Shown: one piece after another, positions 14,477 through 34,424 of the stretch
How positions within the stretch are numbered: position 1 is the first letter of the stretch
Layout: every line of letters starts with the position of its first letter
Source of the DNA: an uncultured Planctomycetota bacterium
GTDB lineage: Bacteria; Planctomycetota; Planctomycetia; Isosphaerales; Isosphaeraceae
DNA length: 64,000 bases
Assembly: GCA_963845755.1 (NCBI GenBank)
Contig: CAWJTV010000002.1
Coordinates: 1 to 64,000, forward strand
Reading direction: 5' to 3'
The notes under the pieces: model-generated
Databases searched by the model: none
What the model was told of the DNA's origin: nothing
The model's input: the letters and a program-made list of their open reading frames with translations, nothing else
Program-made: the position numbers and the translations under genes

Positions 14477-14486
14477 AAGCTAGCCC

Positions 14487-16395: not shown

Positions 16396-18134
16396 GGGTG
16401 GAAGACGCGGTTCGTTTTTCTGACGAGTTACGCGGCTTCCCCAGTCTTCCTGGCTTTGTAGCTGCGGAACGGGCTGCTGGGCCGCTCCTTGAGGTGGCGG
16501 TCCAGGCGGCCATCTTCGGAAAGGAAGGCCGCACGGAGTTGGAGGATCGCTTCGGCACCGGCCTCGCTCCAGAACTTCTCCGACCCCTTCACCCGGCGGT
16601 TGAATATCTTCACCGTCGACTCCACGTGGCTGGTCGTCCACGGGAGGCCCTCGCGACGATAGCGCGGATAGTCCATCCGCTCCCGGTTGTCTTCCAGGTA
16701 GCCCAGCACCCGCGCGACGATCCTCCGGGGGTCGTCGTCGGCTAGCCTTTCCAGCGGGCACCCGCACAAGGCGATCTGGGTATCACACCAGGTGCGAAGC
16801 TCCGCGATCACCCGATCGACCCGCCCGTTCCAGCAGGCCTCCGCCCAGGCCTGGAATGACTCCCAGCGGCCCTCGGTGTCGGCGACCATGACCCGGGCCG
16901 CCGTGAAGAGGTGGGCCAGGGCGTGGAGGAAGTTGACGATCGCCACGAAGGTCGGGAAAGAGCGGCGGTGCAGCCCCCAGATCCAGGCCGAGCCGTCCCC
17001 CAAGAACGCCCGGGCGGCGGCCGCGGCGAAGTTCCGCCGTCGGGCCTCGGCGGCGACCATCGGCCCGAAGCGATCGACCGGGGCGGTCGTGGCCACGTAG
17101 GTGCGCACCGATAGCTCCGGCGTACCGCGCGGCTCGGCGGCCTCGGCGACGGCCGGGATCGGCAGCACGGCGGGCTCCTGGATCTCGGGGGCCGGCGGGC
17201 CCATCGGTCCGGTCCCGCCGATGGCCCCGATGACCTTCTCGACGTAGGCCCGATCGCGGAAACAGGCGGGCAATTCCGGCTCGGGGTCGCACTCGGAGAC
17301 GACAGGGGCCATCGTCGCCAGGATCGCGATCTTGTCCTCGTGCCAGGCGGCCTGGTGGGCTCCCGGCCCCTGGCCCGCGCCGCGGATCTGGAGCCGGCCG
17401 CCATCGACCTCGACGACCGCCAGGGCTGGCCGTGTCGCGACGCGCGGCTCGAGCGTGCCGGCCTGGAAGCGGTCCACCGGCTCATCCCGCTGGGACCGCA
17501 ACTGCTCGCCGAGTTCGCGGGCGATGCGGTCGAGTTGCCGGCCGCTGATGTCCACCTCGGCCAATTCGGCGACGGCCTCGGCTGCCTCGCGGAAGGAGGG
17601 CTCGCGGGTGGCGGAACGGACGATCTTGCGGACTACCGAGGGGCTGTAGTCATGGGACGTCAGCCGTGCGCCGGGCGCGAGGGAAAAAAATCCCGGCGGC
17701 AGGCCGGGCAGTGGCACTGGGGCTCGGCGTAGGTGACCGCGCCGCCCCAGAAGTCGATGGCCCGCGGCTCGCGCTGTACGGCGCAAGGCCGCTGACACGT
17801 CGGGCAGGGTTGCTCGGGCCCCAGCAGCGCGGCCTTCCGCTCCAGCAGATCGGCGATGGTGCCCCGAGCGACGGCGCGGGCGGCGGTGATGGCCATCTGC
17901 TCGATGTCGTCGGCGTCGAGATCCAACTCGGGCCCGACCTCATCGTGGACTGCGCCGGGCCACGACTTTCCCCCACCCTTCGGCGAGCCGCTCGACGCCG
18001 TCTCGATCCATCGATGGTGACTTCTGGAAAGGCATCGGAGGTCCCTCCTTGGACTTCGGGTGATAGACAATCTGGGAAACTCACCTTGACAGCTTACCAG
18101 GGATCGAACGCCGCGCGAACCGCGTCTTCCACCC
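16396..18134 (-). mobile_element. Insertion sequence, ISKra4/IS256-superfamily-like, 1739 bp
   Basis: Perfect 19-bp terminal inverted repeats GGGTGGAAGACGCGGTTCG (16396-16414; 18116-18134) and 9-bp target duplication TCTCGCCCT (16387-16395; 18135-18143). Confidence 0.92.
16428..18011 (-). CDS. ISKra4-like DDE transposase, orfA/orfB joined at a slippery T-run
   Basis: orfA CPTC..CPACRRDFFP; orfB VEVDGG, FLGDGSAWIW, NFLHA, RMDYPRYRREGLP, VESTVK, RRVKG. Confidence 0.88.
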
Positions 18135-18161
18135 TCTCGCCCTGATCCCGCCGCTCCCCTC

Positions 18162-18190
18162 TTGGCCGGTAGGATGCCAGCCGTTAGAAT
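18162..18190 (+). promoter_or_regulatory. Islet-borne sigma70-type promoter upstream of the intact tRNA-Gly
   Basis: TTGGCC (18162-18167), 17 bp, TAGAAT (18185-18190); same -10 hexamer and spacing as 13387-13415. Confidence 0.55.
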
Positions 18191-18285
18191 CGATTTGAGC
18201 TCGAAAGACGGTGGCAACAGGTGTGGCAACCAAGCCGAGAAAAGCATCTGTGCATTTGACGTAAGTCCTTACAGATTAAGCACTT

Positions 18286-18357
<72 letters not shown>

Positions 18358-18431
18358 CTCGACATAACTCCTGCCGAAACCTCAACTTGAGGTTACCTAT
18401 CCCGGTCGGATAGTGCGGCGCCAGACCCGCC

Positions 18432-18456
18432 GGAATGCAGAATAGTTCTGCATTCC
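18432..18456. repeat. Perfect 11-bp inverted repeat between tRNA and integrase (arm site or operator)
   Basis: GGAATGCAGAA-TAG-TTCTGCATTCC. Confidence 0.6.
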
Positions 18457-18477
18457 CCAGCGACATGAGGTATTGGC

Positions 18478-19772
18478 GTGGCACGCACCCGTCGGGGAAC
18501 TCCCCCCTCCTACCGCCGTCACTCTTCCGGTCAGGCCTGCGTCACCGTCCGCGATGGCCAGCGGACGACGCCGCGAGATCCTGCTTGGTAAGTGGGATTC
18601 GCCCGAGTCGAAGGCCGAGTACGCACGGATCATCGACGAACTGGCCGCCCACCAGGGCCGGCTCATGGAACAACAGAAGGACCGGGCCGCCTCCAGCGAC
18701 CTCACGGTCAATGCCCTGGTCCTTGCCTTCTGGAAGCACGCCGAGCAGCATTACGGCCAGCCCAGGGAGAAGTCCGCCACGAGCGAGCTGCTCAACCTGC
18801 GCCACGCCTTACATCCACTCAGGGCGCTGTATGGCCACCTCCGGGCCTCCGAGTTTGGCCCGGTCGCCCTCCGGGCCGATCCGCGAGAAGATGATCGAGG
18901 CCGGCCTGAGCCGGACGACCATCAACGCTCGGATCAACCGGATCCGCCGGGTTTTTCGGTGGGCGGTCTCGGTCGAGCTGATCTCGGCGCCGGTCCTCCA
19001 GGCCCTGGAGACGGTTCCCGGGCTCCAGCGTGGCCGGTCGAATGCGAAGGAAACCGGCAGGGGTCAAGCCGGTCCCGATCGATCGCGTCGAGGCGACATT
19101 GCCCCACCTCAATCCCGTCGTCGCCGCCATGGTCCGGGTCCAGCTCCTGACCGGCTGCCGGGCCGAGGAAGTCATGATCATGCGTGGCTGCGACCTGACG
19201 CCGGGCGAGCCGAACTGGGAGTATCGCCCGGCCTGGCACAAGACCGCCTGGCGGGGCAAGGACCGCGTCATCATCGTGGGGCCGAAGGCCCAGGAGATCC
19301 TCAGGCCATTCCTCAAGGCCGATCCGCAGGCGTACCTCTTCGACCCGCGCGACGTGGTCGAGGCCCACCATGCGGAGCGGGCCCGGAACGCGGAAGTCGA
19401 AGCCCACGCCCTCGGAGGTCGCCAGGCGGTCCAAGGACCGACCGGGGCAGGGTCACGCCGATCACTACGACCGGCGGACCTACCGCCAGGCCGTCATCCG
19501 GGCCTGCAATCGGGCCTTCCCCCACCCTCAACTGTCGAAGATCAAGCCGAAGAAGCTGACGGCCGATCAGCGGCTCGACCTCAAGGAATGGCGGCGGAAG
19601 CAGCGGTGGTCGCCCTTGCAGCTCCGGCATACGGCCGCGACGACGATCCGGTCACGGTTTGGCCTGGAGGCGTCGCAGGTCGTCCTGGGCCACGCAAAGG
19701 CCGACGTGACGCAGATCTACGCGGAGACGGGACCTGGCCAAGGCACATGCAGTCATGGCCGAGATCGGTTGA
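18478..19772 (+). CDS. Tyrosine recombinase/integrase (several frameshifts)
   Basis: N-terminal PSYRRHSSGQA, TINARINRIRRVFRWAV, catalytic TGCR, HKT, PLQLRH, VLGH, TQIY; directly downstream of the tRNA. Confidence 0.92.
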
Positions 19773-19980
19773 GTTGCCTGCGACATCGGAGATCTGGCTC
19801 AATGCAATCTGGCGGTCGGAGCACACGGTTCCGGATCACCTTGGACGAGGAAAAATCGACTGCCACGCGATTCGTAGCATTGCGACGCAGATTGTAGCAC
19901 CCCTTATTCGGAGGACGCGCGGTGTCGTCCTCTGCACGACGCGCTAAGGCGTCGTGAAGTCCCAGGATCGATGAAGGGGG

Positions 19981-21592
19981 GTGACGATGGTCGGCCTGGA
20001 AGGCGAATTGCCTGGCGGCGTAAGGGGTTGTAAGGGGTCTCACCAGGAGAGAGACGACGAACGCACGCCGAGGATCCTCGTGTGGAGGATCGAGCGGGGA
20101 TCCCGGTGGAACTTCCGGCGACTCGGCCGGCGACTGTCGCGCCACGAAGACCTTTTTCGCGACGGCAGCAGGGGCCTCGGCCTGATCCAGGTGCTCGACG
20201 ATGGAAAGACACGCCGGATCACGAGGGCGGCGGAACTGGCCCCACTCATCGCCGATCGCATCCCGATGCGTGTCGAGAAAGACGGCAAGGTCAAGTCCGA
20301 GATGCCCGGACGCCGCGATCCTGAACGCCGCCCTCCGGAGCGAGGTCTTCCTGGGCTGTTTCCGGCCGATTGACGGGATCATCCAGCGATCGACCTACTT
20401 CGAGGATTTCACGCCGGCCCAGCCCGGCTACCACGATCGGGGAGCGGGCGGTCGGATCCTCCACGTAGGTCCTGCCCCCGACGTGGTCGGATCGCTCGAG
20501 ACGATCAACCAGTTCCTCGATGTCATGGATTTCGCGACGAATGCCGATCGGACGAACACCGTTGCAGCGGCCCTGACGGTCCTCCTGCGGAATCACTGGC
20601 CCGGCGAGAAGCCGATCGTGGTCATCACGGCGACGAGGAGTCACGCCGGCAAGGGGACGATCGCCGAGATGATCCGCGGGTGCACGGACAAGGCGGATAT
20701 CCCCTACCAGAACGTGGACTGGCCGATGCAGTATCAGTTCCAGCGACAGGTCCGGATGAATCCCGACCTCAGCGTCGTCCTGTTCGACAACGTGCGACTG
20801 GACAGCGCCGGTGGACGGGGTAGGTTCATCCGCTCAGCTTTCATTGAGAGTTTCGTAATGAATCCGGAGCTCATCCTTGCATCGCCGGGCGCCGGGGATC
20901 CAATTGCGATGGTCAACCGGTTCGTGGCACTCCTGAACACCAATGATGGGAGCCTGAGCGAGGACCTCCACAACCGATCCCTGCCGATTCATCTGTCGCC
21001 CCGTGGGAGCATCCATGATCGCAAGTCGTCCATAGGTAACCCGAAGCTCGAATTCCTCCCCCAGAATCGGGATCGCATCGAGGCCGAACTCCGTGGCATG
21101 ATCGAGCGGTGGCGACTGGCCGGGATGCCGCGGGACGAGACGGCCAATCATCCCATGACGCCTTGGGCTCGGACGGTCGGAGGCACCCTGATGGTCAACG
21201 GTTTCGCGGACTTCCTCGGCAACCGACAGCGTCGCAGGACGGCGGACAATCCGCTACACGAGGCCCTGGGCATCCTGGGGGCGTCCGCTGTGGGCAGCCC
21301 ACTCCGGCCCTCGGAATGGGCTGCGAAGGCCGTCGAGCTGGGTCTCGCGAGGACCTTGTTCCTGGCCACGGAGCGAGACACCGAGAAGGGTCGAGAGCGG
21401 GCCATCGGCGTCACCCTGAGCCGATATCTCGAAGAGACGTTCGACGTACCGACCGAGACACAGGACCTCCGCCTGCGGCTGTCGGGCGGTAGCCGTCGCT
21501 GGACCCACGGTAGGAACCCGCATGTTCGCTATGTCTTTAGCCCGCTTGACGGGAACGAATCAGATACCAGTGTCAGAGAGTGCTCGTCCTGA
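19981..21592 (+). CDS. P-loop NTPase resembling primase-associated helicase domains (start uncertain, frameshifted)
   Basis: QPGYHD, Walker A-like TATRSHAGKGT, Walker B-like VLFDNV, LNTND, DLHNR. Confidence 0.6.
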
Positions 21593-22241
21593 GGGGAGGT
21601 CGCTGGAGACTGCCGATTCCGGGACAGCGCCGGCTCTGGAGGGCTCACCGGGCGGCGGTCGGGTGAGCCCCTCCCATCTTCCAAGCGAGCGATTCGGTAT
21701 CTCCGGACTTCGGTCGGCTCCGCTTGTTCGTTGTTCGAGAGTTGAGATCCGAACGACTCAACGGAGGAATCCCGGGCCGCAGGTCGCCCGTCGATTTCGA
21801 AGAAGGCGCAGGGTGTCTACATGATCGAACTACGAGACTGTCCGTTCAATAGCCTTTGTCCGACCCGGTGATCCGCCTACCGGATAGTGTTCATTGATTC
21901 ATTGACGAAATCAATCGCCATCTCTCTATCTAACGGTATTGCACAAGTCTTCGACATCGGAAATGGCGACGAGGCAGACCAAGGGCTCATCGCGAGAGTT
22001 CCTTTGAATCCCTCCGCGAGGTATCGCAGCTCCATCCAAGCACCTATCCTAACGACATCTCGACTTCGGCACTGCCGGGTATCGCATCATCGCGAGCCAT
22101 AACCTGACTCCCGATGCACGGCTACCTCCAATGCAGCCCTCAAACCATCGCCGAACAGCGGGTACTTGCAACGGCCGTTCGCATCTATATAATCCTGTTC
22201 GTCCCTCCCGGATCTGCTGTCGGCGTCGTGGAACAATTGGC

Positions 22242-23864
22242 ATGAGCGAGTTCTTCAATCCATCCCGCGATCAAAAGGCCGTGGCGGCTTATTTCCTGGG
22301 ATACCGGAGTCGTACACTATGGATATGGCATGAATTATTCTGGACTGGTTACTTCATTGATGTAAAGACCATCGACTGTGACTCCGGACTCGAGGACGGT
22401 CCATGGCTCGCGGCTGAGGAGATCGATCGGGCGCGGATCGTCTGTGGGAATGCCATAGCTCCGCACAATTACGTCGACATCCTAGACATTCTTCATTCGT
22501 TTCAACTTCTTCCGGAGAGCACGATCGAATCCTGGTGGAAGATGGATCCGAGTCAGCAAAGACTCCTCTCACAGTCAGATCCCCCGTACAAAGAGAAGTG
22601 GGAGAGGCTTCAAAATCTAGTCGAAACAGCGTTCGAATCCGAGAACATACTCACTCGCTATTGTCGGGTCGGCCTGGCTATTGGCGATTACGAGCTGGCC
22701 ATGGAAAGAATTCCGGACTTACCTAAATCCATTGATCAAAATACTAACATGCCATGCTTGGCGGAGGCCGCGAAGGGGCTTCCGGCCGACGTGCTTCGAG
22801 ACATGCCATTGCTTAGTAGGATCGTCGAACTGGAGCCGGTTTGGATCGCGGAGGGGCCGCAGACCTTCTTCGTTGCACTATTCAATGAACTAGACAACAT
22901 CAGGGGAGAGGTTCCGCGAGGGCTGGAACGATTCCCCCTCCAGTTCACTCTCTTACAGGCTCTCCAAGCAGAGATCTGTTCTGTCCTTGCAGGCACGCAT
23001 GTGGAAGAGAATGGGGGAATGCCTCCGAAACAGAGACCGCCCACAGGACCCACCGGCAAAAGAGAGGCATCGACGAATCCCGAGGATTATGAATTCGCAT
23101 TTTGCCTTCATCAGGACCAGTGGCTTGTCGTCTATAGCTCTTCCGCGGGCAAGGAAAAAGGTCATTTCCCTATCAGAAAATCGTTTAATGGATTCGCAAT
23201 CATTAATTTCTTAATTAAAAATCAAGGGCAAGAGCAAGGGTTCTCTCCTGGGGAGATTGTCGAGGCCCTCGATCCGGGTCCCGATAGCTCGACAAGGCGA
23301 CGGAACGAAATGATCGCAAGCGAAATCGGAGGCAAGCGCCGAGACTGGTCGAAATTGAAGGTATTTGATCGCACAGGAATTCGTAATATAATCAACGCGC
23401 TGCGACAACTCCAGGAGGGATATCGGGAATATCTACAAAACCCGTCAGAGAACACGGCGATCGACCATGAGAAAGACTGCATAGAGTTACTTCAATGTAT
23501 TCGAGGATCCTTGACGTATGGGACTCATACAAAGGTAGCCATTATCGATGAACTGCTACAATCGCCACTGTTAGAGGCGGATTTCTCGCGTCTGAACGAG
23601 ATCGGTCCCGATGATCTCAAAGATCTCAACGAGGGGAAGAATCCTGTGGGGTCGGTGAGGAGCAGGGTGGGAAAAGCGATCACGGACGCGATCGATCGCA
23701 TCGCTAAGAAAAGCATGCGCGAGACAGCGAAATATTTGGAATCTACAATTGTGAATCCAAACGGATCTTCTGGCGTTTCCTATGTTCCAGTTGGAAACGC
23801 CCCTCCGAAGTGGGTACTCGATCTTAAGGTCTCCGGGGGATCGGAGGACGTGCAACAAGTGTAA
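22242..23864 (+). CDS. Low-GC hypothetical protein with a putative C-terminal DNA-binding region
   Basis: 540-aa uninterrupted ORF, AT-richer than its flanks; C-terminal SVRSRVGKAITDAIDRI..YLESTI. Confidence 0.7.
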   Translation: MSEFFNPSRDQKAVAAYFLGYRSRTLWIWHELFWTGYFIDVKTIDCDSGLEDGPWLAAEEIDRARIVCGNAIAPHNYVDILDILHSFQLLPESTIESWWKMDPSQQRLLSQSDPPYKEKWERLQNLVETAFESENILTRYCRVGLAIGDYELAMERIPDLPKSIDQNTNMPCLAEAAKGLPADVLRDMPLLSRIVELEPVWIAEGPQTFFVALFNELDNIRGEVPRGLERFPLQFTLLQALQAEICSVLAGTHVEENGGMPPKQRPPTGPTGKREASTNPEDYEFAFCLHQDQWLVVYSSSAGKEKGHFPIRKSFNGFAIINFLIKNQGQEQGFSPGEIVEALDPGPDSSTRRRNEMIASEIGGKRRDWSKLKVFDRTGIRNIINALRQLQEGYREYLQNPSENTAIDHEKDCIELLQCIRGSLTYGTHTKVAIIDELLQSPLLEADFSRLNEIGPDDLKDLNEGKNPVGSVRSRVGKAITDAIDRIAKKSMRETAKYLESTIVNPNGSSGVSYVPVGNAPPKWVLDLKVSGGSEDVQQV

Positions 23865-24837
23865 CGGGGGCCAAGCGCTCTCCCGAGACATTTTGACGTC
23901 CGCAGGAGTGAGCATCTTTCCTTGCAATCGAGAGGGTGGACACAGCACCCCCATATCGCACGCGGAGTCACCCTAGGTCGCCCTAACTGAACGGACGCGC
24001 AAGTCCCTGTCTGCGCGGACGTCCGTGTGGTTCTGTGGCATTCGCGGTGTGCGAGCTCACGCCGCGGCATAGATCACATCCGGTATCGCCACGACATACC
24101 CCCACGACGTCTTCGCTCCCCCGAACCGGCGCGGATTCGCCCGACCTATCATCATGTTGTCTCCCTGACCCTCGGTAACGTCGCCCATACCGTCGCCGTC
24201 CCCCCCTTGTCGCAGCCGGCGCGAGCCGGGCCGCCTTGGAAGGTTCCACATCTCCGCCAAACTCCGTTACACCAAGACGCTATCAAGGAAGGTAACAAAG
24301 CTACCCAGAATGTCGCACCGTGCTTGAGAGGAAGATCGTGGCGACGGGGGCCATCGAAAACTGGGACTGGACTAAAGCGGGTAGTACGAGCCTCACGAAC
24401 AGGATTTCGGCAATTACCCGGCCAAATCATCGAGGGTAGCAAAGTGAGCCGAGAAGTTGCGCCTATTCCATAGACGGAGGTCGCGGCGATGGCCGCCGCC
24501 GCGAAGCAGGGCAAGTCAACGATCCGCAAGAGAGAGAGTTTTCGATTGCAGAGTTCCGTGGCGAGTCGTCCAGTTAATGGTGGAGGCGATGACGGTCACC
24601 GCCACGGGAAGCACCAACTGAACCTTCGGGAATATCCTCGCCACACCTTGCAGGAACTTTGCAATGAGATGTCGATCAGCAATGTGGCGATGGTGACGTC
24701 CACAACCTCGAGGGAGGGTAAATGATCCAGCAGCTCCCATCGCCATCTCCCGAAAAAAAATTTTCCGAGGGAATTTCGGCTCTGGGATGTCGATTCGTAG
24801 GGGCGATGATGACGGCCGCAACCATGAAGGAGGGGAT

Positions 24838-25068
24838 ATGAGCCAACAGCTCACAGTGACTGATGCCGCAGACGAACTCTCGGCCCAGGCCGGCGAGATG
24901 ATCCGGCCTCGCGACATCAGTGACCTTCTCTACAAGAGGATCCTGGACGTCAATCGATGCCCGATTGTCGGGGATCGCCGCATGATTCCGCGCGACTACC
25001 TGCCCACGGTGCTGGAGGTCCTCCGGATGCGCGGGCTGATCACCCCCGGCGAGGAGGAGCCCAGTTGA
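24838..25068 (+). CDS. Small HTH protein (excisionase/regulator-like)
   Basis: AGGAGG RBS; LTVTDAADEL...RPRDISDLLY...GDRRMIPRDYL. Confidence 0.7.
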   Translation: MSQQLTVTDAADELSAQAGEMIRPRDISDLLYKRILDVNRCPIVGDRRMIPRDYLPTVLEVLRMRGLITPGEEEPS

Positions 25069-25367
25069 TTGATCCATTACTCGAAGAGCTGATTACGCCC
25101 AAGGAGGCGACGCGGTACTACCCGCGGAACTCGAAGGGGAGGAAGGTCCACGTGGCAAAAGTTTATCGCGACATGCAAGTCGGCCAGCGAGGGCTGAAAC
25201 TTGAGTCGCTCCGTACGCCCCGTCTCGCGACCTCGAGACAAGCGATTGCGAGATTCTTCTCGCGCCTCAGCCTCGGGGCCGCACAGGAGTCGCCGACGTT
25301 GACCGAACGGGCTCGGTCTCGAAATGAAGAGACGATCGAGCGCGAACTCGATCGTCTCGGGATCTGA
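25065..25367 (+). CDS. DUF1580-like winged-HTH protein (excisionase-like)
   Basis: TTG start overlapping upstream stop; EELITPKEA, GRKVHVAKVYR, GLKLES, TSRQAIARF. Confidence 0.78.
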   Translation: MIDPLLEELITPKEATRYYPRNSKGRKVHVAKVYRDMQVGQRGLKLESLRTPRLATSRQAIARFFSRLSLGAAQESPTLTERARSRNEETIERELDRLGI

Positions 25368-25414
25368 TGTCAAGACGGTCGCCACCCCGCGAAGAGTGAA
25401 CCGACCAACCTAAC

Positions 25415-25684
25415 ATGGAGATCAACGACTTGAACAGTCCAATTGTACACATGCAGGTCAACTCTGACAAGGTCCTCCGCATCCAGATCATGTCGCTACT
25501 TCGTCGGACCGGAACCATCGTCCGGGCCTGGCACGACGCAAGGACGTCGTCGGCTGAAGACGAGGACGACCTCCACGATACTCCCCACGTCGACAATCCA
25601 TTGCTCGACATCATGACCCCCGCCCAGGTCAGCTCCTGGTACCGCAGCCAGATGAGCGTCTTCGAGCCGAGGGCGGCAGGTTGA
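25415..25684 (+). CDS. Hypothetical protein
   Basis: 89-aa ORF in the co-oriented early gene cluster. Confidence 0.45.
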   Translation: MEINDLNSPIVHMQVNSDKVLRIQIMSLLRRTGTIVRAWHDARTSSAEDEDDLHDTPHVDNPLLDIMTPAQVSSWYRSQMSVFEPRAAG

Positions 25685-25873
25685 GTCACCGCAATTGGTC
25701 CGATCATGGGCTGCCGGGACGGCCCCTGGGCAGGTTCCGGCAGCTCGTTGTAAATGTGTCGCCTGACAGACCGCATGGCCGTTGCATTCGCTTTCGGGTG
25801 GGGCGATCTCAATGCCTACCTTGGGCAAGATCACGACGTTCGACCATCAAGACGGAGCATCAAGGAGCATACC

Positions 25874-26719
25874 ATGACGCGGCCGCTCATTTGTCGGGAT
25901 CGTCTGACGCCGGCTGAACAGCGCGAGCTCGAGCGTTGCGCGCACTGGGGCATCAGCCTCCAGACGCTCGACGAGGACAGCAGAGACATGGTCAACGGCG
26001 TCGAGATCCCGATCCTCGGTCAGGATGTGGAGCTCGCGCTGGAGTATTCGATCAGAGCAGCCAGCCGGATGCTCGAGCATCCCGATCCCGCCCAGCGATG
26101 GCAACACGACGTAGCCTTTTTCGCTGTCGGCCGGCTGCTTGCCATCGTCCGCATCGGTCCCGACGGCCCAGTCGTGACGAGGTTCGACCCGATCACCCTG
26201 CCATCGATCGTGACCGGCATCCCGGGATCGCGACGAGGCCGAAGGCCCTGCATCTACTGGGTTGACGGATCACTCGAGGCGACCAGTTACGGCGTGGGTA
26301 CACCGATCGCCGGCCGGGATCCGGCCATCCTGATCGATGAGCTGGTCGGGGCAATGTGCGAGAAGTTGCGTCATCCTGACGCGGACCATAGACAGACCGA
26401 GGACGTGATAATCACGCATCGTGGACAGATCCTCGCGGCGATCCGGTCGACGGCCTCGGGCCCCGTCGTCACGCGGTTCGATCAGACCGACTCGTCGGCC
26501 GGCAGCCTGGCCGATCCGCCAGATGGCCCCGAACCGTCCACTGTCCCCTTTGGTGCCGGCGGCCAGGACCGGATGCGCCGGTCCACCGTCGGACGATCCC
26601 CACCTTCCGACGATGAGGAACAGCGCATTGAACCCAACACCATTACGCGCCACCGGGCCGGAAGCTCGGCCTCGCGGACATCGAAACCGCCGGTAGTGGA
26701 CTGCCCTCCCGTCTCGTGA
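25874..26719 (+). CDS. Hypothetical protein with an internally duplicated domain (3' end uncertain)
   Basis: AAGGAG RBS; HPD..GRLLAIVRIGPDGPVVTRFD and HPD..GQILAAIRSTASGPVVTRFD. Confidence 0.6.
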   Translation: MTRPLICRDRLTPAEQRELERCAHWGISLQTLDEDSRDMVNGVEIPILGQDVELALEYSIRAASRMLEHPDPAQRWQHDVAFFAVGRLLAIVRIGPDGPVVTRFDPITLPSIVTGIPGSRRGRRPCIYWVDGSLEATSYGVGTPIAGRDPAILIDELVGAMCEKLRHPDADHRQTEDVIITHRGQILAAIRSTASGPVVTRFDQTDSSAGSLADPPDGPEPSTVPFGAGGQDRMRRSTVGRSPPSDDEEQRIEPNTITRHRAGSSASRTSKPPVVDCPPVS

Positions 26720-27525
26720 TCTTCGGGACGGAAGGCATCGGCAAATCTAGTTTCGGGGCCGCGGCCCCGAAACCCGTCTTTCTGATGACTCAGAACGAGA
26801 CGGGGCTCTTGACGCTACTGGACGCCGGCCGCATCCCGCCGACGCCCCATTTTCCGGAGGTCACGACATGGTCCGAGTTGCTCGACGCCATCGCCGTGCT
26901 GAACGACCAGACGCACGACTACCGGACGCTGGTCATCGACACCGTGAACGGGGCCGAGCGACTCTGTCATCAGCATGTCTGCAGGCGAGACTACGGAGGT
27001 CGCTGGGGTCGGGATGGATTCACGTCGTTCAACCAGGGCTACGACGTGGCCCTGGCGGACTGGCAGGAGTTCCTCCATCGAGTCGATCGTCTGAGGGCCG
27101 TCAAGCGGATGGGCATCATCACGCTGGCCCACAGCCGGATCGCGACGTACCGGAACCCCGAGGGTGCCGACTACGACCGGTTCGTGCCCGACCTCCATGC
27201 CAAGACCTGGGCGCTGACACACAAGTGGGCCGACGCCGTCCTTTTTCTTAACTACGAGACCTTCGTCGACTCCGACCGCGCCGACCTCAAGGGCAAGGGC
27301 AAGGGCGGGAGCCGACGCAAGATCTACACGCAGCGGACCGCGGCGTTCGACGCGAAGAATCGCCATGGTCTGCCCGCAGAAATCGACGGCGGCCGCAGTG
27401 CCGCCGAGGCCTGGCTCCACCTGGCCACCGCGATGAAAACGGCCAAAATGGCCACCCCGACAACCTCCGATTCCGCGACCGTCGCGGACGTCCTCATCAA
27501 CGACTCGAACCCTGTTACGGAGTGA
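26716..27525 (+). CDS. AAA_24 / Sak4-like phage recombination ATPase (true start probably ~90 bp upstream)
   Basis: IFGTEGIGKSS, YRTLVIDT, ITLAH, NPEGADYDRF, WADAVLF, AFDAKNRHGLP. Confidence 0.85.
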   Translation: MIFGTEGIGKSSFGAAAPKPVFLMTQNETGLLTLLDAGRIPPTPHFPEVTTWSELLDAIAVLNDQTHDYRTLVIDTVNGAERLCHQHVCRRDYGGRWGRDGFTSFNQGYDVALADWQEFLHRVDRLRAVKRMGIITLAHSRIATYRNPEGADYDRFVPDLHAKTWALTHKWADAVLFLNYETFVDSDRADLKGKGKGGSRRKIYTQRTAAFDAKNRHGLPAEIDGGRSAAEAWLHLATAMKTAKMATPTTSDSATVADVLINDSNPVTE

Positions 27526-27533
27526 TCCCTTCC

Positions 27534-28043
27534 ATGTCGATCGACCCTGGCAAGTACCGCGGCCGAATCCGCGACTACGGCGTGGAGCAGTCCCAGGCCG
27601 GCCAGCAGCATCCGACGGTGTTCCTCAACTTCGAGATCGTCGGTCAATACGACCCGACGACCGGCGAACTCCTGTCCTGTCCGACGGCCAGCCGAACCTA
27701 TCGCAAGGCGATCACGCCGAAGACGATCGGCTGGCTGCTCGCCGACCTCAAGGCGATCGGCTACGACAAGCCGGGCCTGGAGTACCTCGATCCCGAGACT
27801 CCTGGTGCCATCGACCTCTTCGACCACGAAATCGATGTAGTCTGCGAGCACGATACCTACGAGGGCCAGACTCGCGAGCGGTGGTCGATCCATCGCGAGC
27901 GCACCCGCGAGCGGGTCCGCCGCGACGTCCTGGCCAGCCTGGACGCCCAGTACAGCGACCAGATCCGGCGAGTCCTGGGCGCCGACGCGGGTGATGTGAA
28001 CCCGCCGCCGGTCGCTGAGATCAACAACGACAATCCCATCTGA
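27534..28043 (+). CDS. Putative single-stranded DNA-binding protein (DUF669-like OB fold)
   Basis: PGKYRGRI start, VCEHDTYEG, acidic C-terminal tail NNDNPI; follows the Sak4-like gene. Confidence 0.6.
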   Translation: MSIDPGKYRGRIRDYGVEQSQAGQQHPTVFLNFEIVGQYDPTTGELLSCPTASRTYRKAITPKTIGWLLADLKAIGYDKPGLEYLDPETPGAIDLFDHEIDVVCEHDTYEGQTRERWSIHRERTRERVRRDVLASLDAQYSDQIRRVLGADAGDVNPPPVAEINNDNPI

Positions 28044-28120
28044 TCCTACTCATCGATGCAGATAGGTAATGCCAGGCCGGGCGACTCGTCCGGCCTGGCA
28101 TCACTTGTCTGCACAACTCC

Positions 28121-30801
28121 TTGGAGCATTCTCCCTTGAGACGCCCAGCAAAGTACGTGACGCTCGTCAACAAGTTGAAGGAGCGTGACGAGGTTCGGTG
28201 GACCGGTAAAGAGTGGCGAACTCGCTGCCCAGCCCATGACGATTACGGACCGAGCCTTTGCGTCAAGCTCTTGCCCGACGACTCCAATACGCTGATCCAC
28301 TGCAGCGCCGGCTGCAAGACTGAGTCCATCGTCGCCGAGGTCGGCCTGACGATGGCCTGCCTCTTCCATGACGACGACGAGCTCGTTGAGGTCGATGAGG
28401 ACTTCGAGATCGTCAACCAGGCGCCGCGAGCCCCCAGAACCGTCGAACCGCCTCCGGAGACCAAATCTCGGGGCGACGGGCCCGACCGCGTTACGGAGCT
28501 CGCCAAGCCGGCGGATGCCGACCTGTGCGACCAGGTCTATGGCAAGCTGCTGGCTGGCCTGAGCCTCGCCGATGCCCATCGCCAGGATCTCCAGCGGCGT
28601 GGGCTGAGCGACGAACAGATCGGCCGCCGCTGCTATCGAAGCCTCGGAAAGTACGAGATCCGCCAGGCCATGGGCCGGCTCAAGCAGGAGCTCGATAACG
28701 CGAGCCTGGAGCGCGTGCCTGGGGTCCGGATCCGCAACGGTCGATTGCAGTTCTCCGACCGCGAGGGCCTGCTGGTGCCGGTCCGCGATGCCCAGAACCG
28801 GATCGTCGCCCTGAAGCTCCGCGCCGACGAGTCGAGCGGCGGGGCCAAGTACACCTGGATCTCCAGCTCCGATCAGGGCGGCCCCTCGCCCGGCTCGCCG
28901 CCGCACGTCCCGCTCGGCATGCCGGCCCGCGCCGAGGTCGTCCGGGTGACCGAGGGCGAGCTGAAGGCCGACATCGCCTTCGCGCGCTCGGGCATGCCGA
29001 CGATCGGCGTCCCGGGCGTCGATCAGTGGAAGTCGTGTCTCCCGATCCTCGAGGCCATGGGCGCGAGGATCGTCCACGTCGCGTTCGACATGGACGCCCA
29101 GACCAAGCCGGGCGTGGCGGCGGCCCTCGCCGCGTGCGTGAGGGAGCTGATCCGTCTGAAGTACGAGGTCCGCCTCGAGACCTGGGAACAGGGAGATGGC
29201 AAGGGGATCGACGACCTGCTCGCCGCCGGCAAGCAGCCCGCGATCGTGACCGGCCAGGAGGTCCTCGCCAGGATCGAGGAGATCGGCACCTCGGCCGCGG
29301 GCCAGCCCGACGACGATGCCGACGACGGGTGGTTTCCTCAGGATCCCGCCGACGAGGTCGCCCCCTTCCCGGTTGATTGCCTGCCGGCCCCCCTTCGCCA
29401 GTTCGCTACCGAGGCGGCCCGGGCTCTGCAATGTCCGGTCAACTTCCTCGGCGTGACCATGCTGGCCGTGGCATCGGCGGCCATCGGCAACACCAGGCGG
29501 CTCAGGATTCGACGCGGCTACGAGGAGGGCGCGCGAATCTACGCCGCCATCGTGGCGGCGGCCGGCTCGGTCAAGTCGCCGGCCCTGCGCCTGGTCTGTG
29601 ACCCGGTCTACGAGCAGCAGAGGCGCCTGATGGCGGGCTACCACGAGGCTCGTCTGCGGTACGTGGCCGACATGGAGGGGTTCGAGCACCGGCGGCGTCT
29701 TGCGTTGAAAACCAAGGACCCGTTGCCGCCGGGATTCGAAAGGCCGACCAAGCCGGTAATGGGCCACGTGTACGTCGAGAATGCGACCGTCGAATCGCTG
29801 GCCCAGGTCCTGTCCCAGGCTCCGCGGGTGTCCTGATGATCCGCGACGAGCTGACCGGCTGGGTGCTGTCGCTCAACCAGTACCGGTCCGGGCGAGGGGC
29901 GGACCGGCAAGTCTTCCTCTCGTTCTGGTCGGGCGAGCCGACGAAGATCGACCGCAAGGGCGAGCTCGACGAGCCGCTGATCGTCACCGACCCGTTCGTC
30001 TCCGTCATCGGCTGCATCCCCCCGGCCAAGCTCGCCGCCCTCGACGACGGCAATGACGGCGAGGACGGCTTCATGCATCGGATCCTCTCCTCGTTTCCCC
30101 GGCCGGTCAGGGGACGCTACTGGACCTGGGAGGGGATCAGGCCCGAGACCCGCAAGCTCTGGAGCAACGCCGTCGAGGCACTGTACGGCCTGGAGATGGA
30201 TCGGGACGAGATGGACTTCCCGACGTCGCGGATTCTCGACCTGGCGCCCGAGGCCTGCCAGCCATGGGAGGCGTGGTACAACGAACACGTCGCGGAGACC
30301 GAGCAACCCGATTTTCCGGACTACCTCGTCGGCCCGTGGTCCAAGCTCGTGGCCTATGCGGCGCGTCTGGCCCTGATCGTCCACCTGCTGCGGGCCGCCT
30401 GCGGGGAGCGGCTCCGCGATGAGGTGGACACCGAGAGCCTCGATCGGGCCTTCCGGCTCATCGCCTACTTCAAGTCCCACGCCCGGGCCGTCTACGCCCA
30501 CCTGCGGCTCCCGAAGAAGCTGGGCCCGATCCAGAAGGTGATCTCCTGGATCCGCGGGCACAACAAGACCGAGTTCCACACGAGCGAACTGGCCCGCAGC
30601 CAGGTGGCCGGCATCCGGAGCCGGAGCGAGGCCGAGGCGATCATGAAGGAGCTGGCCGACCTGGGCTATGGCCGGCTGGAGGAACGCCGAGCGAAGAACA
30701 ACCGGAAGGTGACCTGGTTCGTCACCCGGCCGGTCCAGTTGGGTCGAGTTGGGTCCAGTTGGGCAGAGCCACCCAACTCGCCGAATTCCGCAAGTGCCTG
30801 A
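28121..30801 (+). CDS. Primase-helicase-like replication protein: zinc finger + TOPRIM (DUF3854-like) + DUF3987/YfjI domain (frameshift near 29830)
   Basis: CPAHDD..HCSAGC; VTEGELKAD, VAFDMD, GKGIDDLL; PFPVDCLP, AAGSVKSPA, ENATVESL, IRDELTGW, DGFMHRI. Confidence 0.85.
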
Positions 30802-31382
30802 ATTCCAATGGTTTAGAATTGACACCTCGGTCCAGTTGGGAAATTGGGTCGCTCCAGAAGGAAAGGAAGATGGGGAGCTACCGGGACGGCCTTACCGGCC
30901 CCCTCCTGGGTATGAAGGGTATATACCTGGGGAATAAGGTATATATAAGGGGTTTTGAGATAATATAAAGTATTATTTATATTATAAATAATATAATATA
31001 CTATCTCTACCAGATTACACCCCTGCAGGCGGTCTACAAGTAGGGAACGAACTGCACGCTTTTTCCCTGCAATCGCCCAATTTCCCAACTGGACAAGGAG
31101 ACAAGACGCAAGTCATTGAATTTATTGGACTTACGTAGTTCACTCCAGTTGGGTAGGCAGCCCAACTGGACCCAACTTGCCCGATTGGCGCCCGGAACCG
31201 CCGACCAGGGCGGACGATGCCTGGTTACCCCCTGCAGGCGGCGTACCGCCCCGGAACTGGACTCTTTTCCCCCTGGAATTACCCAATTTCCCAACTGGAC
31301 ACGGATTTACTGTGTAAACCATTGGCTCAATTGTAGTTGCGGGAATCGGTCCGGTTGGGTGGGTAGCCCAACTGGACCCGAT
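30732..31382. repeat. Putative replication origin: three ~110-bp CCAACTGGAC-rich units around an AT-rich core
   Basis: Unit at 30732-30849 inverted relative to units at 31076-31185 and 31281-31382; very AT-rich tract ~30920-31015. Confidence 0.8.
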
Positions 31383-31487
31383 TCGCCTGACTGGCAACCG
31401 GGACCGGCGACCGGGTCGGACGTGGCCTGTGGTCCTGGCCGCGGGCGAGATCTATCCTGTCCCATATCATTCGACGAGGAAGCTATC

Positions 31488-33827
31488 GTGAGCATCGCCA
31501 CATCGACGAGGTGCATCGTGCCTATCGGGGATCGGGAGTTCCCCTTCGAGAAGCCATGGTCGGGCCGGACCCTTGCGAATCGCGGGTACCTGGCCTTCGA
31601 CACCGAGACCGAGGTCCTCAAGGACAGCGACCGGCAAATCCCGCGGCTGGCCCTGGCCACCGTCTGTGCAGGCGACGAGGCGAGCGCCGTGATCCACCCC
31701 GATCAGGTCGGCCGGTTCATCCTGGCCCATCCGCGGGCCCGCTATGTCATCCACAACGTCGCCTTCGATTTCTGGGTCGTCGACCACCACCTGCAGGAAC
31801 GCGGCGAGGAGGAAGCCAGGAAGGCCTGGTGGGACGCGTGCGAGGGGAACCGGATGCACGACACGATGATCATGGGCCAGTTGATCGAACTGGCCCGCCA
31901 GGATGCCGATCCCAGGCCCCGCAGCCTGGCCGACATGGCGCGGGCCTACGCGCGCATGGAGATCAGCAAGGAGGATCCCTTCCGGATGCGGTTCGGCGAG
32001 CTCATCGGCGTTGACTGGGACCAGGTCGAGGACGGATTCTTCGACTACGCGATCAAGGACGCGATCGTCACTCTCCACGCCTTCAGGCCGATGCTGCTCG
32101 AGGCCCAGCGTCTGATGATGGAGCTCGGGGGCGAGGGAACGGCGCTGGCCGACGACGTGCTCGCGCGGCACGGGGCACTCTCGGAATCCATCCAGGTCAA
32201 GGGCGCGGTCGCCCTGGCCTGCATCGAGCGCCACGGCATGCACCTGGACCTCGATCGCGTCCGATCGGCCGAAACATCGCTCCGGGTCGGGCTCGAAGCC
32301 GCGGTGACCGGACTGCGTGCGATCTGCCCCGAGTTGTTCAAGACCAGCCGGGATCCGGCCACGGGCGAGACGGGCCTCCGCCGCACCCAGAACGGCGTGC
32401 CTTCGATCTCGGAGGAGGTCTTGCAACGGCAGCTTCGCCGCGTGATCGACGAGATCCGCGAGGCGACCGGCCAGGAGCTCGAAATCCCTACGACCGAGCG
32501 GACTGGCAAGCTCCAGAGTTCAAGCAAGGTCTGGGCCGAGCATGCCCATCGGCACCCGTTCCTCGAGAACTGGCTCGCGATGAAGGACCTGGCCAAGCTC
32601 TGCCAGTTCTTCTCCGCCCTGCGCGAGCCGGTCGTGCACCCGCGGTATCGCCACCTGCTCCGCACCGGCCGGACGGGCTGCAGCAGGCCGAACGTCCAGC
32701 AGATCCCGCGTGATGACCAGTTCCGGCAGGCGTTCGTCCCGTCGCCTGGCCATTTCCTGCTGGCGGTCGACTTTTCCTTCATCGAGCTGCGGACCCTCGC
32801 GGCCCATTGCCTGAAAGTATACGGCCGCTCCGAACTGGCGAACGTGATCAGGACCGGGCGAGACCCGCACGCCTACACGGCCGCCATGATCGTGGGCGTG
32901 CCGTTCGAGGAATTCCTCGGCTGGAAGGATGATGAGACCGTGATCGAACTCAACGGCAAGACGCAGGCGCGAAGGCACCATTTCAAAGAGGCCCGCCAGC
33001 TCGCCAAGCCGATCAACTTCGGCGTGCCCGGTGGACTGGGCGCCGCGAGCCTCGTCGCCTACGCCCGTCACACCTACAAGGTGGACATGACGCTCGAGCA
33101 GGCGGGCGCATTCCGGACCCGTCTGATCGAGGAGATCTACCCCGAGCTCAGGATCTATCTCGATGAGGACGGCATGTCGCTCGTGGCCCACAATCTCGGC
33201 GTTCCGGTCGGCGAGGTCTGGAATGCCTTCGATCGTGAGGGTACGCGAGCCCCTTATATCCCCCTGGGGATCAGGAACATCGTCCGTGGCAGGACCCTGA
33301 ACTCAAAGGGTAGGCCATACAACCCCTCATATCCCAGCGGGGTGTGGAGAGGGTTGATCCGGCTGTGTCGCAACCCCGAGATCAAACCGCTCCTCGAACA
33401 GCGCCGTGGGAATGCGAAGCTCTGCAATCGCCTGTTCGGTAATGCGGTCGTCACGCTGACCGGCCGGATCCGCGGCGGGGTCAGCTACTCGCAGTGCCGC
33501 AACACGCCGTTCCAGGGCCTGGCCGCCGACGGGGCCAAGCTGGGCCTCTTCCGGCTCATCCGTGAGGGTTTTCGCGTGATCGCCTTCGTCCATGACGAGG
33601 TCCTGATCGAGCTACCCGATGAGGGAGGGTTCGTGTCAAAGGCCGGGATCGATCAGATCGTCGAGATTCTCTGCTCGGAGATGCAGGCGGTCCTGGGATG
33701 CGACCTGCCGGTTGAAGTCGAGTACGCGCTTTCCACCTGCTGGTCAAAGGACGCAAAGTTGATCGAGGCGGATGGCAAGATCTATCCGTGGAGTCCGGAG
33801 ACGACCGGGGCCGGAACCGCGTCCTGA
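31488..33827 (+). CDS. Family A DNA polymerase (3'-5' exonuclease + polymerase, no 5'-3' exonuclease)
   Basis: ExoI AFDTETE, ExoII HNVAFD, ExoIII YAIKD; RTGR..PNVQQIPR, motif A VDFSFIELR, motif B RQLAKPINFG, NTPFQG, motif C FVHDE. Confidence 0.95.
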   Translation: MSIATSTRCIVPIGDREFPFEKPWSGRTLANRGYLAFDTETEVLKDSDRQIPRLALATVCAGDEASAVIHPDQVGRFILAHPRARYVIHNVAFDFWVVDHHLQERGEEEARKAWWDACEGNRMHDTMIMGQLIELARQDADPRPRSLADMARAYARMEISKEDPFRMRFGELIGVDWDQVEDGFFDYAIKDAIVTLHAFRPMLLEAQRLMMELGGEGTALADDVLARHGALSESIQVKGAVALACIERHGMHLDLDRVRSAETSLRVGLEAAVTGLRAICPELFKTSRDPATGETGLRRTQNGVPSISEEVLQRQLRRVIDEIREATGQELEIPTTERTGKLQSSSKVWAEHAHRHPFLENWLAMKDLAKLCQFFSALREPVVHPRYRHLLRTGRTGCSRPNVQQIPRDDQFRQAFVPSPGHFLLAVDFSFIELRTLAAHCLKVYGRSELANVIRTGRDPHAYTAAMIVGVPFEEFLGWKDDETVIELNGKTQARRHHFKEARQLAKPINFGVPGGLGAASLVAYARHTYKVDMTLEQAGAFRTRLIEEIYPELRIYLDEDGMSLVAHNLGVPVGEVWNAFDREGTRAPYIPLGIRNIVRGRTLNSKGRPYNPSYPSGVWRGLIRLCRNPEIKPLLEQRRGNAKLCNRLFGNAVVTLTGRIRGGVSYSQCRNTPFQGLAADGAKLGLFRLIREGFRVIAFVHDEVLIELPDEGGFVSKAGIDQIVEILCSEMQAVLGCDLPVEVEYALSTCWSKDAKLIEADGKIYPWSPETTGAGTAS

Positions 33828-34095
33828 GTTACCTGCAGGCGTCATATCCCGGCGCCCCGCCGGCACATGATGAGGCGGCCGTTGATTCGTTTACGCGGAA
33901 CATTGTGCCGGCGGCCGGGACCCTGTATCGCGTCCGATACGCGGCTGATGGAACTCTACCGTCATCATCATGGGGAACCTGTGTTTATCTGCTGGATCCC
34001 GGCGAACCAGTCGAGTAGGTTTGGAGACTGGTCCGGCACGTAGGTCTTCCGCATGGAGTTCTGGCCAGATGACGGCGATGAGCAGCTCATCCTCA

Positions 34096-34410
34096 TCATG
34101 AACGCAGAGAGAGGTTTGAAATCCGGAGATCCGGCTGATTTGAGGCGGGTAACATGTTTAGCATCTCGCCCTGCTCCCACAGATCATCGACAACGGCCAG
34201 GATCCCGAAGAATTGCCCGACCATACTCGCTGATGCGATCGCGGCGATGCTCACTCCGCTCCTGACGAGGATGGCGATGGCGTTACCGCCTGCCGTGCCG
34301 TTGTGGTCGCCGTCGATGAGTTCGACCGGACCAATCCTGAAGGCCCGAGGGGACAGGCCGTTGACCCGGGGCTGGACCTGGATGGACAAAGCAAACGGCT
34401 TTCTAGGTAG
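34096..34410 (-). pseudogene. Remnant of the C-terminus of a planctomycete extracellular protein
   Basis: LPRKPFALS..VNGL..LIDGDHNGTAGGNAIAIL, with no start or upstream body. Confidence 0.45.
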
Positions 34411-34424
34411 CCGGGAACGAGGAG

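Follow-up and report, generated by a model that had tools for sequence, protein, structure and literature searches.

We describe a putative mobile element in the window, by which we mean the whole stretch analysed here, namely the first 64 kb of the 73,393-nt contig C2 of an uncultured Isosphaeraceae bacterium of the Planctomycetota, whose genome (G000; 14.27 Mb in 49 contigs) is estimated to be 87.9% complete. In our judgement this element is probably a replicative genomic island resembling tycheposons and phage-inducible chromosomal islands (PICI), integrated into the 3' part of a tRNA-Gly(CCC) gene and equipped with a phage-derived replisome. Judged by its genes, the integrase-proximal ~15.5 kb is a complete phage-type replication module, and sequence comparison places the island in a lineage of Planctomycetota islands with a phage lineage as its sister group and a varied cargo, defence systems included. 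The main rival is a decayed prophage, that is, a temperate phage that lost its morphogenesis and lysis genes, the genes to its right being chromosomal or later insertions, and we regard it as unlikely.

The initial annotation of the window, made from its letters alone, had proposed an element that is integrated at a tRNA and brings a replication module and an origin of its own. This proposal is supported, and all the main items of the gene series that it listed are present in the same order on the + strand. Reading frames were picked by third-position GC and homology, in a window whose GC content of ~0.62-0.66 gives rise to many spurious long open reading frames (ORFs). The span originally given to the element, 18432 to 33827, has to be amended at both ends: the left boundary lies at 18359-18383, and at 33827 it is the replication module that ends rather than the element. 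The features that carry the argument are the following:

18286-18358, + strand: tRNA-Gly(CCC), the integration target and sole tRNA of the window (ARAGORN).
18359-18383, + strand: attL junction, the last bases in common with contig C44 (contig comparison).
~18554-19772, + strand: tyrosine integrase, in 4-5 frame segments as assembled.
19981-21592, + strand: superfamily 3 (SF3) helicase, D5/PriRep-like; the assembled ORF is 20201-21592, 463 aa.
24027-25684, + strand: small ORFs, including a DUF1580-like helix-turn-helix (HTH) candidate at 24957-25367.
26716-27525, + strand: Sak4-like AAA_24 ATPase (single-strand annealing, RecA-like; PF13479 4.3e-34, phrog_124 7.1e-37).
27522-28043, + strand: DUF669-type OB-fold SSB (binder of single-stranded DNA), 173 aa (model and Foldseek).
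28121-30801, + strand: primase-helicase with CHC2 zinc finger, TOPRIM (DUF3854) and DUF3987, in two ORFs as assembled.
30727-31440, no strand assigned: origin-like region, iterons CCAGTTGGG around an AT-rich centre.
31488-33827, + strand: family A DNA polymerase (PolA) with 3'-5' exonuclease, 779 aa (PF00476, PF01612, phrog_17 8.8e-67).

The left boundary of the island is sharp. Another contig of the same genome, C44, has the left flank and the tRNA gene in common with C2 over 16.7 kb, with 99.1% identity between C2:1704-16396 and C44:1-14679 (90 mismatches and 36 gap columns in 33 openings, many of the differences being single-base indels inside genes) and 99.2% identity between C2:18135-18383 and C44:14670-14918, after which the two diverge. 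Beyond the junction C44 continues with ordinary genes, those for DJ-1, a tyrosinase, LodA and glycosyltransferases, without an integrase. Because the break falls 25 nt past the tRNA, at the start of the integrase-bearing region, the pair looks like an occupied and an empty site from two strains or subpopulations. In the same-genus genome G001 the tRNA-Gly(CCC) is identical (100%, 74 nt), and the orthologous flank and tRNA are followed by a related integrase remnant cut by an insertion sequence (IS) and then by the contig end; the arm beyond 18383 resembles the sequence behind the G001 tRNA-Gly (83% over 135 nt). A pattern of GCCGAA, a hairpin, TACC, a second hairpin and GTGCGGC recurs behind the tRNA core in three genomes, at 18359-18430 of the window, at locus L190 of G001 and at loci L177-L180 of genome G061, and possibly represents integrase arm sites or the int promoter.

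The integrase gene starts 196 nt past the tRNA-Gly on the same strand. Its product is homologous over the full length to the intact integrases of contig C17 of this genome and of the Gemmataceae locus L018 (38-56% per segment), preserves the catalytic R, K, HxxR, H and Y with no stops inside the segments, and matches Pfam Phage_integrase at 1.7e-4 in its C-terminal piece. Each of its six paralogs in the genome is encoded no more than ~400 nt from the 3' end of a tRNA gene (Ala, Arg, Thr, Ile, Pro and Gly), and three of these six sites, those at tRNA-Ala, tRNA-Arg and tRNA-Thr, have 43-44-nt repeats equal to tRNA positions ~31-74. The tRNA-Thr(CGT) island is complete on one contig (12.3 kb, C44:65871-78202, with a 43-nt repeat and a same-family integrase), while the tRNA-Ile island has a PrimPol-DUF3987 gene but no PolA. 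With paralogs at six tRNAs and a tRNA-Ile island lacking PolA, the genome thus holds a family of tRNA islands with exchangeable replication modules.

A second island of the same genome lies at tRNA-Ala(TGC) on C17, where the tRNA is followed by an intact 412-aa integrase, an IstB remnant, DUF1580, DUF669, a PrimPol-DUF3987 helicase, an AT-rich gap (30% GC) and a PolA 47-50% identical to that of the window. The last 44 nt of this tRNA-Ala recur on the opposite strand at C5:822947-822990, where there is no tRNA gene, and the end of C5 behind this repeat (822947-847860) encodes BrxB, PglZ, BrxC/D, a helicase, Mrr and NOV_C. Since the orientation of the repeat fits, the tRNA-Ala island would run off C17 into the end of C5; both contig ends are unique and without overlap.

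As regards the replication proteins, what had been called a P-loop NTPase is present and can be sharpened, on the strength of its predicted structure, to an SF3 helicase. Its GK and DN are invariant across 10 aligned homologs, and its model (pLDDT 77.6) matches the C-terminal helicase region of NrS-1, African swine fever virus PrimPol, PriRep1 of Staphylococcus aureus pathogenicity islands (SaPI) and poxvirus D5/E5; it also has an Atlas score of 0.98 to 'primase-helicase family' clusters, and in distant relatives the homologous part forms the C-terminal half of larger primase-helicases. The ORF has no Pfam match, and the Pfam DUF5906 model finds nothing in the genome, this helicase included, despite the Atlas lead. 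If the base at 20312 is omitted, as it is in one metagenome contig, the protein becomes 536 aa long.

The Sak4-like ATPase, the SSB-like protein and the zinc finger-TOPRIM-DUF3987 protein of the initial annotation were all recovered. The first has the Walker A motif GTEGIGKS and a homolog 59% identical in L018. The SSB was modelled as an OB barrel with a pLDDT of 75.6 from an alignment of only 5 sequences, and Foldseek matches the model to PrgE (6e-5) and bacterial SSBs in the PDB and to DUF669 proteins in BFVD (1e-7). The C-termini of its relatives read SPF, IPF or DPF, resembling the C-terminal tip of bacterial SSB, and the window copy ends in NPI. The primase-helicase has the zinc motif CPAH...HCSAGC and both primase and helicase matches in PHROGs, and its DUF3987 domain is split at profile positions 143/148 by a break at ~29827, a one-base frame change in a G run; the single-ORF 845-aa primase-helicase of L018 aligns unbroken across this point. 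An imperfect palindrome (57 nt, 84%) was observed at 28057-28113, within the 77-nt gap between the SSB and primase-helicase genes.

PolA has the exonuclease and polymerase domains that had been claimed for it, and its start lies near 31488, in agreement with the public gene call of 779 aa, rather than at 31116. The residues of motifs Exo I-III and of polymerase motifs A, B and C are invariant in 28 homologs, the window copy included, and so are the exonuclease columns DxE, FD and YxxxD. Compared with solved structures, it matches generic Pol I only, and the best isolate-phage PolA is ~26% identical. The host Pol I is a separate gene on contig C41, and the PF00476 genes of the genome are in total that one, the window PolA and the C17 paralog.

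Between the primase-helicase gene and PolA there is a non-coding stretch of 686 nt, and the structured origin suggested at the outset is well matched by what it contains. All eight exact CCAGTTGGG words of the 64-kb window fall within 30735-31375, as do 4 of the 21 one-mismatch words, and the window total of 29 (8 exact plus 21 one-mismatch) was reached by 0 of 100 shuffles. The left iterons (30735-30840) lie on the + strand in 4 of 5 cases and the right ones (31084-31375) on the - strand in 5 of 7, on either side of an AT-rich centre at 30900-31010 whose GC falls to 0.28. In relatives, the corresponding gap holds clusters of other words: one 9-mer of L018 has 8 of 8 copies there, and the count for locus L026 is 9 of 9. 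SaPI origins are described as consisting of opposed iterons just downstream of rep that flank an AT-rich centre (PMC9371898). By sequence and by analogy, the 30.7-31.45 kb intergenic stretch therefore appears to have the anatomy of an origin in the SaPI layout.

Put together, these genes suggest how the island might live. The integrase would excise it as a circle, perhaps aided by the small DUF1580-like protein; a self-loading helicase would recognise the iterons flanking the AT-rich stretch and melt that stretch, the likelier candidate being the zinc finger-TOPRIM-DUF3987 primase-helicase, whose gene lies directly upstream, and the second candidate the SF3 helicase. The TOPRIM domain would prime, the island's proofreading PolA would extend, the DUF669-type SSB and the Sak4-like annealase would coat and process single strands, and the island would in this way be copied without the host replicase. 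Because there are no particle or conjugation genes, it would have to leave the cell by another route, which may be packaging by a helper phage, vesicles or transformation.

Relatives of the island recovered by PolA searches belong to the Planctomycetota. There are 99 PolA homologs at E <= 1e-10 in the protein collection, but among 61 related genomes the PolA is rare, with a match at E <= 1e-20 in only 2, one of them G000. The same searches gave 129 genome stretches and 116 viral stretches, the viral collection being IMG/VR, and the best 80 of each were taken, so that the module queries were run against 81 genome loci (the best 80 plus C17) and 80 viral loci. Integrase pieces were found at 8 of the 81 genome loci and at none of the 80 viral ones, the SF3 helicase at 11 and none, the primase part at 21 and 26, and the helicase part at 16 and 5, respectively. 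The synteny search yielded the same order in L018, a Gemmataceae locus with tRNA-Val, int, a methylase (MTase), Sak4, the SSB-like protein, the 845-aa primase-helicase, iterons and PolA, and the same tRNA-Gly(CCC) target in L023 (Schlesneria); L043 is at a tRNA-Val and L093 at a tRNA-Ala. The L018 island lies in a tandem array of tRNA-Val 3' repeats: at +90.5, +106.5 and +112.5 kb the Gemmataceae genome has further copies of the tRNA-Val 3' end, followed by similar arm sequences and further integrases. The 84 frames of this region encode MoxR, a reverse transcriptase, a C5 methylase with DUF6339, helicases, IS, sigma factors, oxidoreductases and a kinase, with no virion or conjugation family at E <= 1e-5. 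A smaller type is seen in a neighbouring PolA clade, in which the element L039, 9.5 kb long, is bounded by tRNA-Val(TAC) and a 19-nt repeat and encodes an integrase, HTH proteins, PrimPol-AAA_25 and PolA, besides a 143-aa ORF whose Terminase_4 match is weak (E 0.0013, under the cut-off); L029, L035 and L069 are of the L039 type, and the integrase abuts fabF in L029 and L069. Fusions to DNA adenine or N4/N6 methyltransferase domains are seen in several PolA homologs, and an N-terminal TubC_N-like docking domain in others, the C17 paralog included; examples of such fused homologs are among P0026, P0037, P0058, P0060, P0061, P0068 and L006:12950-15643.

The PolA tree separates chromosomal from viral copies. 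From 162 candidates, 98 had a + strand ORF of at least 600 aa without X, and removal of near-duplicates left 83 rows. The window PolA falls in a 12-row clade in which every row is chromosomal and none viral, in keeping with the initial claim of a PolA-based element class of planctomycetes, and in the sister clade 20 of 23 rows are viral, terminase-bearing contigs included. The viral or genome label changes 5 times on the tree, as against 20 in shuffles. Among five viral records tested, TerL is above the Pfam cut-off in two, one of which has terminal repeats, and below it in a third; as to the 99 ORFs of these records, homologs in the planctomycete loci exist only for the SSB-like protein, the primase and PolA, terminases aside, and the terminases match only L052, a contig that is itself also in the viral collection. 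Since the module is common to terminase-bearing viral contigs, its phage origin is clear.

On the question of a decayed prophage the evidence divides. A decayed prophage would account for the phage-type PHROG matches of Sak4, SSB, primase-helicase and PolA, for nearest viral contigs having TerL and in one case terminal repeats, for the many frame breaks, for the IS200-like gene and repeats right behind PolA and for the lack of a detectable attR. Yet all 10 scanned members of the 12-row PolA clade (L017 and L027 were too short) are without virion or conjugation families while their cargo differs, and independent loss in each is unlikely; the clade contains no viral row among its 12; the catalytic residues are kept and no in-frame stops occur within segments; and the origin words are intact.

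The frame breaks deserve a closer look, given that they also affect housekeeping genes. As side observations, the gene for pyruvate:ferredoxin oxidoreductase (PFOR) at 3246-7130 is spread over three frames, and the AP_endonuc_2 gene at 2619-3131 has its N-terminal half out of frame; among further split genes, phrog_8638 lies in two frames and BrxC in four pieces. We consider the frameshifts in integrase, helicase and primase to be probably assembly noise, because housekeeping genes are broken as well, because the alignment of C2 with C44 shows 33 gaps of one to two bases over 14.7 kb, and because one short-read contig lacks the extra base at 20312. That contig differs at 3 other letters and may come from another strain, and the integrase breaks and the 29827 break lie outside the coverage of the metagenome contigs shown.

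No terminase, portal, capsid, tail, lysis, relaxase or type IV secretion system (T4SS) family was found at 18.4-73.4 kb, the stretch of window and contig tail scanned with Pfam and PHROGs on selected frames, and the earlier statement that virion and conjugation genes are missing up to 64 kb accordingly extends to position 73393. The same two databases gave no TerS, capsid-remodelling or Stl-type genes in the window. Its sole 'terminase' row, phrog_19299 'terminase large subunit' at 2.3e-11, falls on the Sak4-like ATPase and was rejected as a P-loop cross-match, given that the same protein matches Sak4 at 7e-37. No PF03354 terminase was detected in the 87.9%-complete genome. The tRNA-Ala island showed no virion or conjugation family, 90 frames being covered at its C5 end, nor did 15 related loci in 99 frames; structural or conjugation modules were hence found neither just outside the window nor in the syntenic homologs, the paralogous island included.

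Two further alternatives bear on this absence. One is an integrative mobilisable element or integrated plasmid transferred by a conjugative system encoded elsewhere, for which autonomous replication genes beside an integrase and cargo, the failure to find packaging genes and the best solved match of the SSB-like protein, PrgE of plasmid pCF10, would speak. We rate it as improbable, since neither relaxase nor coupling protein nor T4SS was seen in the window, the C2 tail, C17/C5, the G061 island or the 15 loci (an oriT being beyond the search), and the nearest non-chromosomal relatives of the module are all viral contigs. The other is an intact temperate phage with structural genes too divergent for recognition, an idea favoured by the scant sampling of planctomycete phages, reflected in the ~26% identity of the best isolate-phage PolA, and by the ORFs without family match behind the PolA of L018. 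This we consider very improbable: the small ORFs that separate PolA from the IS200-like and giant genes of the window span only ~2.2 kb, the remainder consists of Ig/FG-GAP giants, sigma factors and kinases, the terminase of the viral contigs has no homolog in chromosomal loci except L052, and the genome has no PF03354 match.

Several points nevertheless weigh against the reading as a tRNA-integrated replicative island. Its excision and replication are proposed from the genes. The flank common to C2 and C44 could alternatively be a segmental duplication. The tRNA 3' duplicate anticipated beyond the window was not found for tRNA-Gly, there being no 3' copy in C2 or in the whole assembly by blastn-short and local alignment. 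Integrase, SF3 helicase and primase-helicase are all broken as assembled, and if these breaks are real the island is dead. Behind PolA, L018 has 7 ORFs of 128-552 aa without a named-family match, and Pfam and PHROGs may fail to recognise the virion proteins of planctomycete phages. The scans of related loci covered flanks of +-10 kb, and that of the 15 loci frames of at least 200 aa outside known genes at E <= 1e-6 only. The label 'viral' is IMG/VR's own call, and the PolA tree is a FastTree tree only and unrooted. The replication genes also recur in terminase-bearing viral contigs (PolA 37%, primase 29-34%, SSB-like protein 26-28%). As to the missing attR, the end of C2 is a mosaic of repeats common to contigs C7 and C8 with no path to attR, and because of this the far end of the tRNA-Gly island may be unassembled. 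A candidate attR at 53788-53808 was rejected: its score of 30 was reached by 1 of 20 shuffles, and no C44-like sequence follows it.

Returning to the replicative island, its closest concept by gene layout is the tycheposon and its closest mechanism, by analogy, the SaPI replicon. Tycheposons are described as islands that have a tRNA-targeting integrase and replication genes and lack those for capsids or conjugation; their genes are said to include 'polymerases, primases, helicases', and their replication genes to form a 'small replication module (~2-4 kbp)' (10.1101/2020.12.28.424599). The likeness covers a tyrosine integrase at one end, facing inward and adjoining a full-length tRNA, partial tRNA repeats (in the sister islands), a replication module beside the integrase, variable cargo, the lack of capsid and conjugation genes, related islands at several tRNAs of one genome, and tandem arrays. 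The differences lie in the host phylum, tycheposons being known from marine cyanobacteria; in the module, which here takes ~12 kb and has two helicases, SSB, annealase and a proofreading PolA; in the size of the planctomycete islands, which may reach 44-90 kb; and in the far-end repeat, which for tRNA-Gly was not found in the assembly. With SaPI and PICI the island has in common, by sequence, the integrase, the primase-helicase and a probable iteron origin directly downstream of the helicase gene, and, by its model, an SF3 helicase matching PriRep1 and the SaPI5 primase-helicase. It differs from them in encoding a DNA polymerase of its own, in that searches gave no TerS, capsid-remodelling or Stl-type genes, and in a size that is probably well above 15 kb.

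Other known systems share single traits with it. Some marine phage satellites, the virion-encapsidated integrative mobile elements (VEIMEs), combine integrase and primase/helicase without virion genes and in some modules carry DNA polymerase genes, although they are small and were recovered from virus particles (PMC9618062). Derivatives of A-family polymerases occur on staphylococcal cassette chromosome (SCC) elements, and the SCCmec-type system of CCPol-MP and Cch is likewise non-viral, with a polymerase fold of the A family, a partner protein of OB fold and a helicase that loads itself; CCPol, however, is without most of the exonuclease domain and works as a primase (PMC10061031, PMC10201439). 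In the island PolA the exonuclease (PF01612) motifs are intact, and a TOPRIM primase exists separately. The recombinases of SCC elements are of the serine type rather than tyrosine integrases that target tRNAs. Pipolins and casposons, known as self-synthesising elements, are also integrated and encode a DNA polymerase of their own, but theirs belongs to family B, being protein-primed or primer-independent, and their integrases are of other kinds (Cas1 in casposons), whereas the island polymerase belongs to family A (PF00476) and goes with a conventional primase. The viral contigs G064 (42 kb) and G065 (38.6 kb, with terminal repeats) resemble the island in the order SSB-like protein, primase and PolA (PolA 37%), but they have TerL above the Pfam cut-off, share their other genes with no chromosomal locus except L052, and belong to the sister clade. 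A survey of PolA families notes that cells can have additional PolAs and that Planctomycetota have fusions of PolA with AEP primases (PMC10201439).

With tycheposons, polymerase-bearing marine satellites and SCC A-family polymerases already described in the literature just cited, the novelty originally claimed for the element class was overstated. No description of PolA-bearing Planctomycetota integrative islands was found in the literature searched; the supplements of the tycheposon and VEIME papers may list polymerase families. What is new is the combination of a proofreading PolA, two helicases, SSB and annealase on Planctomycetota tRNA islands, in a clade apart from the viral one. More tentatively, and at slightly less than even chances, these islands may form an old, non-phage tRNA-island lineage of the Planctomycetota and other bacteria of the PVC (Planctomycetota-Verrucomicrobiota-Chlamydiota) group, with their own proofreading PolA and a SaPI-like origin, serving as vehicles of 10 to ~90 kb for cargo and defence and representing an undescribed class.

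The mobile elements of the Planctomycetota are almost unstudied, and the phylum is without good genetic tools, so a compact replicon made up of initiator helicase-primase, ~700-bp origin, SSB and polymerase could become a planctomycete shuttle replicon. The islands would extend the tycheposon and PICI concept to islands having a full replisome and defence cargo, such as BREX and Mrr on the sister island and reverse transcriptase, methylase and MoxR on the Gemmataceae relative, and the paired chromosomal and viral PolA sister clades offer a testable case of the domestication of a phage module by non-viral elements.

The remaining features of the window lie within the module or to its right:

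22131-23864, + strand: 577-aa low-GC ORF (GC 0.51-0.54).
25754-26719, + strand: 321-aa ORF without a family match.
35059-35715, - strand: IS200/Y1-type transposase gene (PF01797 5.8e-6), the end of the recognisable element genes.
36083-64000, no strand assigned: possible cargo (Pfam).

The 577-aa ORF had been called regulator-like, a label that found no backing, as it has no match in Pfam, PHROGs or PADLOC and no homolog in 161 related loci; it is probably later-acquired cargo. The 321-aa ORF has nothing in Pfam, PHROGs, PADLOC or Atlas, and PADLOC gives nothing on the element genes, matching only a generic kinase (PD-T4-6) and an AAA protein (IetA) further right. The small ORFs are presumed to be regulators or an excision factor. 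Where two excisionase-like HTH proteins had been proposed, one weak DUF1580 match was seen (24957-25367, E 5.5e-4, under the curated cut-off) and only that one; a DUF1580 match above the cut-off (8.3e-10) occurs at the corresponding position of the C17 island.

To the right of PolA and its small ORFs, the possible cargo comprises a 2805-aa FG-GAP/SdrD/Ig protein, Ig-domain proteins, an ECF sigma factor with a Ser/Thr kinase and a tetratricopeptide (TPR) protein, and further right a multi-copy DUF1257-AAA module and RTX/Ig giant genes. Because G001 has no counterpart of 33850-53800, the region to at least 53.8 kb is, on this comparison, accessory. The giant surface-protein genes and the DUF1257-DUF2997-AAA module, initially assigned to the cargo, are possible cargo at most, with no attR found. 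The AAA module is a multi-copy unit itself: the module at 54255-59534 (phrog_8638, an AAA ATPase and other ORFs) has a 94% copy on C47 and copies of 87-89% on C5 and C6. Beside the IS200/Y1 gene lies a repeat of ~65 nt (35057-35124) with dozens of copies on many contigs and also in G001, and the two resemble a REP/RAYT pair (repetitive extragenic palindrome and its associated transposase).

On the left side of the tRNA a 4.8-kb insert (13483-18286) is bounded by a 37-nt copy of the tRNA-Gly 5' half (13483-13519) and by the intact tRNA. It contains a HEPN_RiboL-PSP gene, ORFs without known function and a 1.74-kb IS, is absent from G001, where the ExbBD flank directly adjoins the tRNA, and looks like a second small island with the tRNA 5' half as its core. 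The 1.74-kb IS (16396-18134; ORF of 456-503 aa with a weak UPF0236 match) is present in C2 and not in C44, and the genome has 10 further copies at 99.4-99.8% identity.

Among public reads, four soil-metagenome runs of one study contain 5-7% of the words of 18100-22100; these runs may derive from the source samples and are not independent support. Metagenome contigs on 17000-36000 are scattered, 151 nt long and mostly identical, with no joints by the criteria of the tool, and an apparent joint linking 33667 to 17016 across 6 letters, seen in runs X2 and X4, was discarded, as it consists of ~18-nt matches within longer unrelated contigs. Finally, dispersed repeats of ~155-180 nt occur in many tens of copies (72-95% identity) across contigs, some of them in tandem, with examples at C17:44024-44180 and C44:33667-33864.

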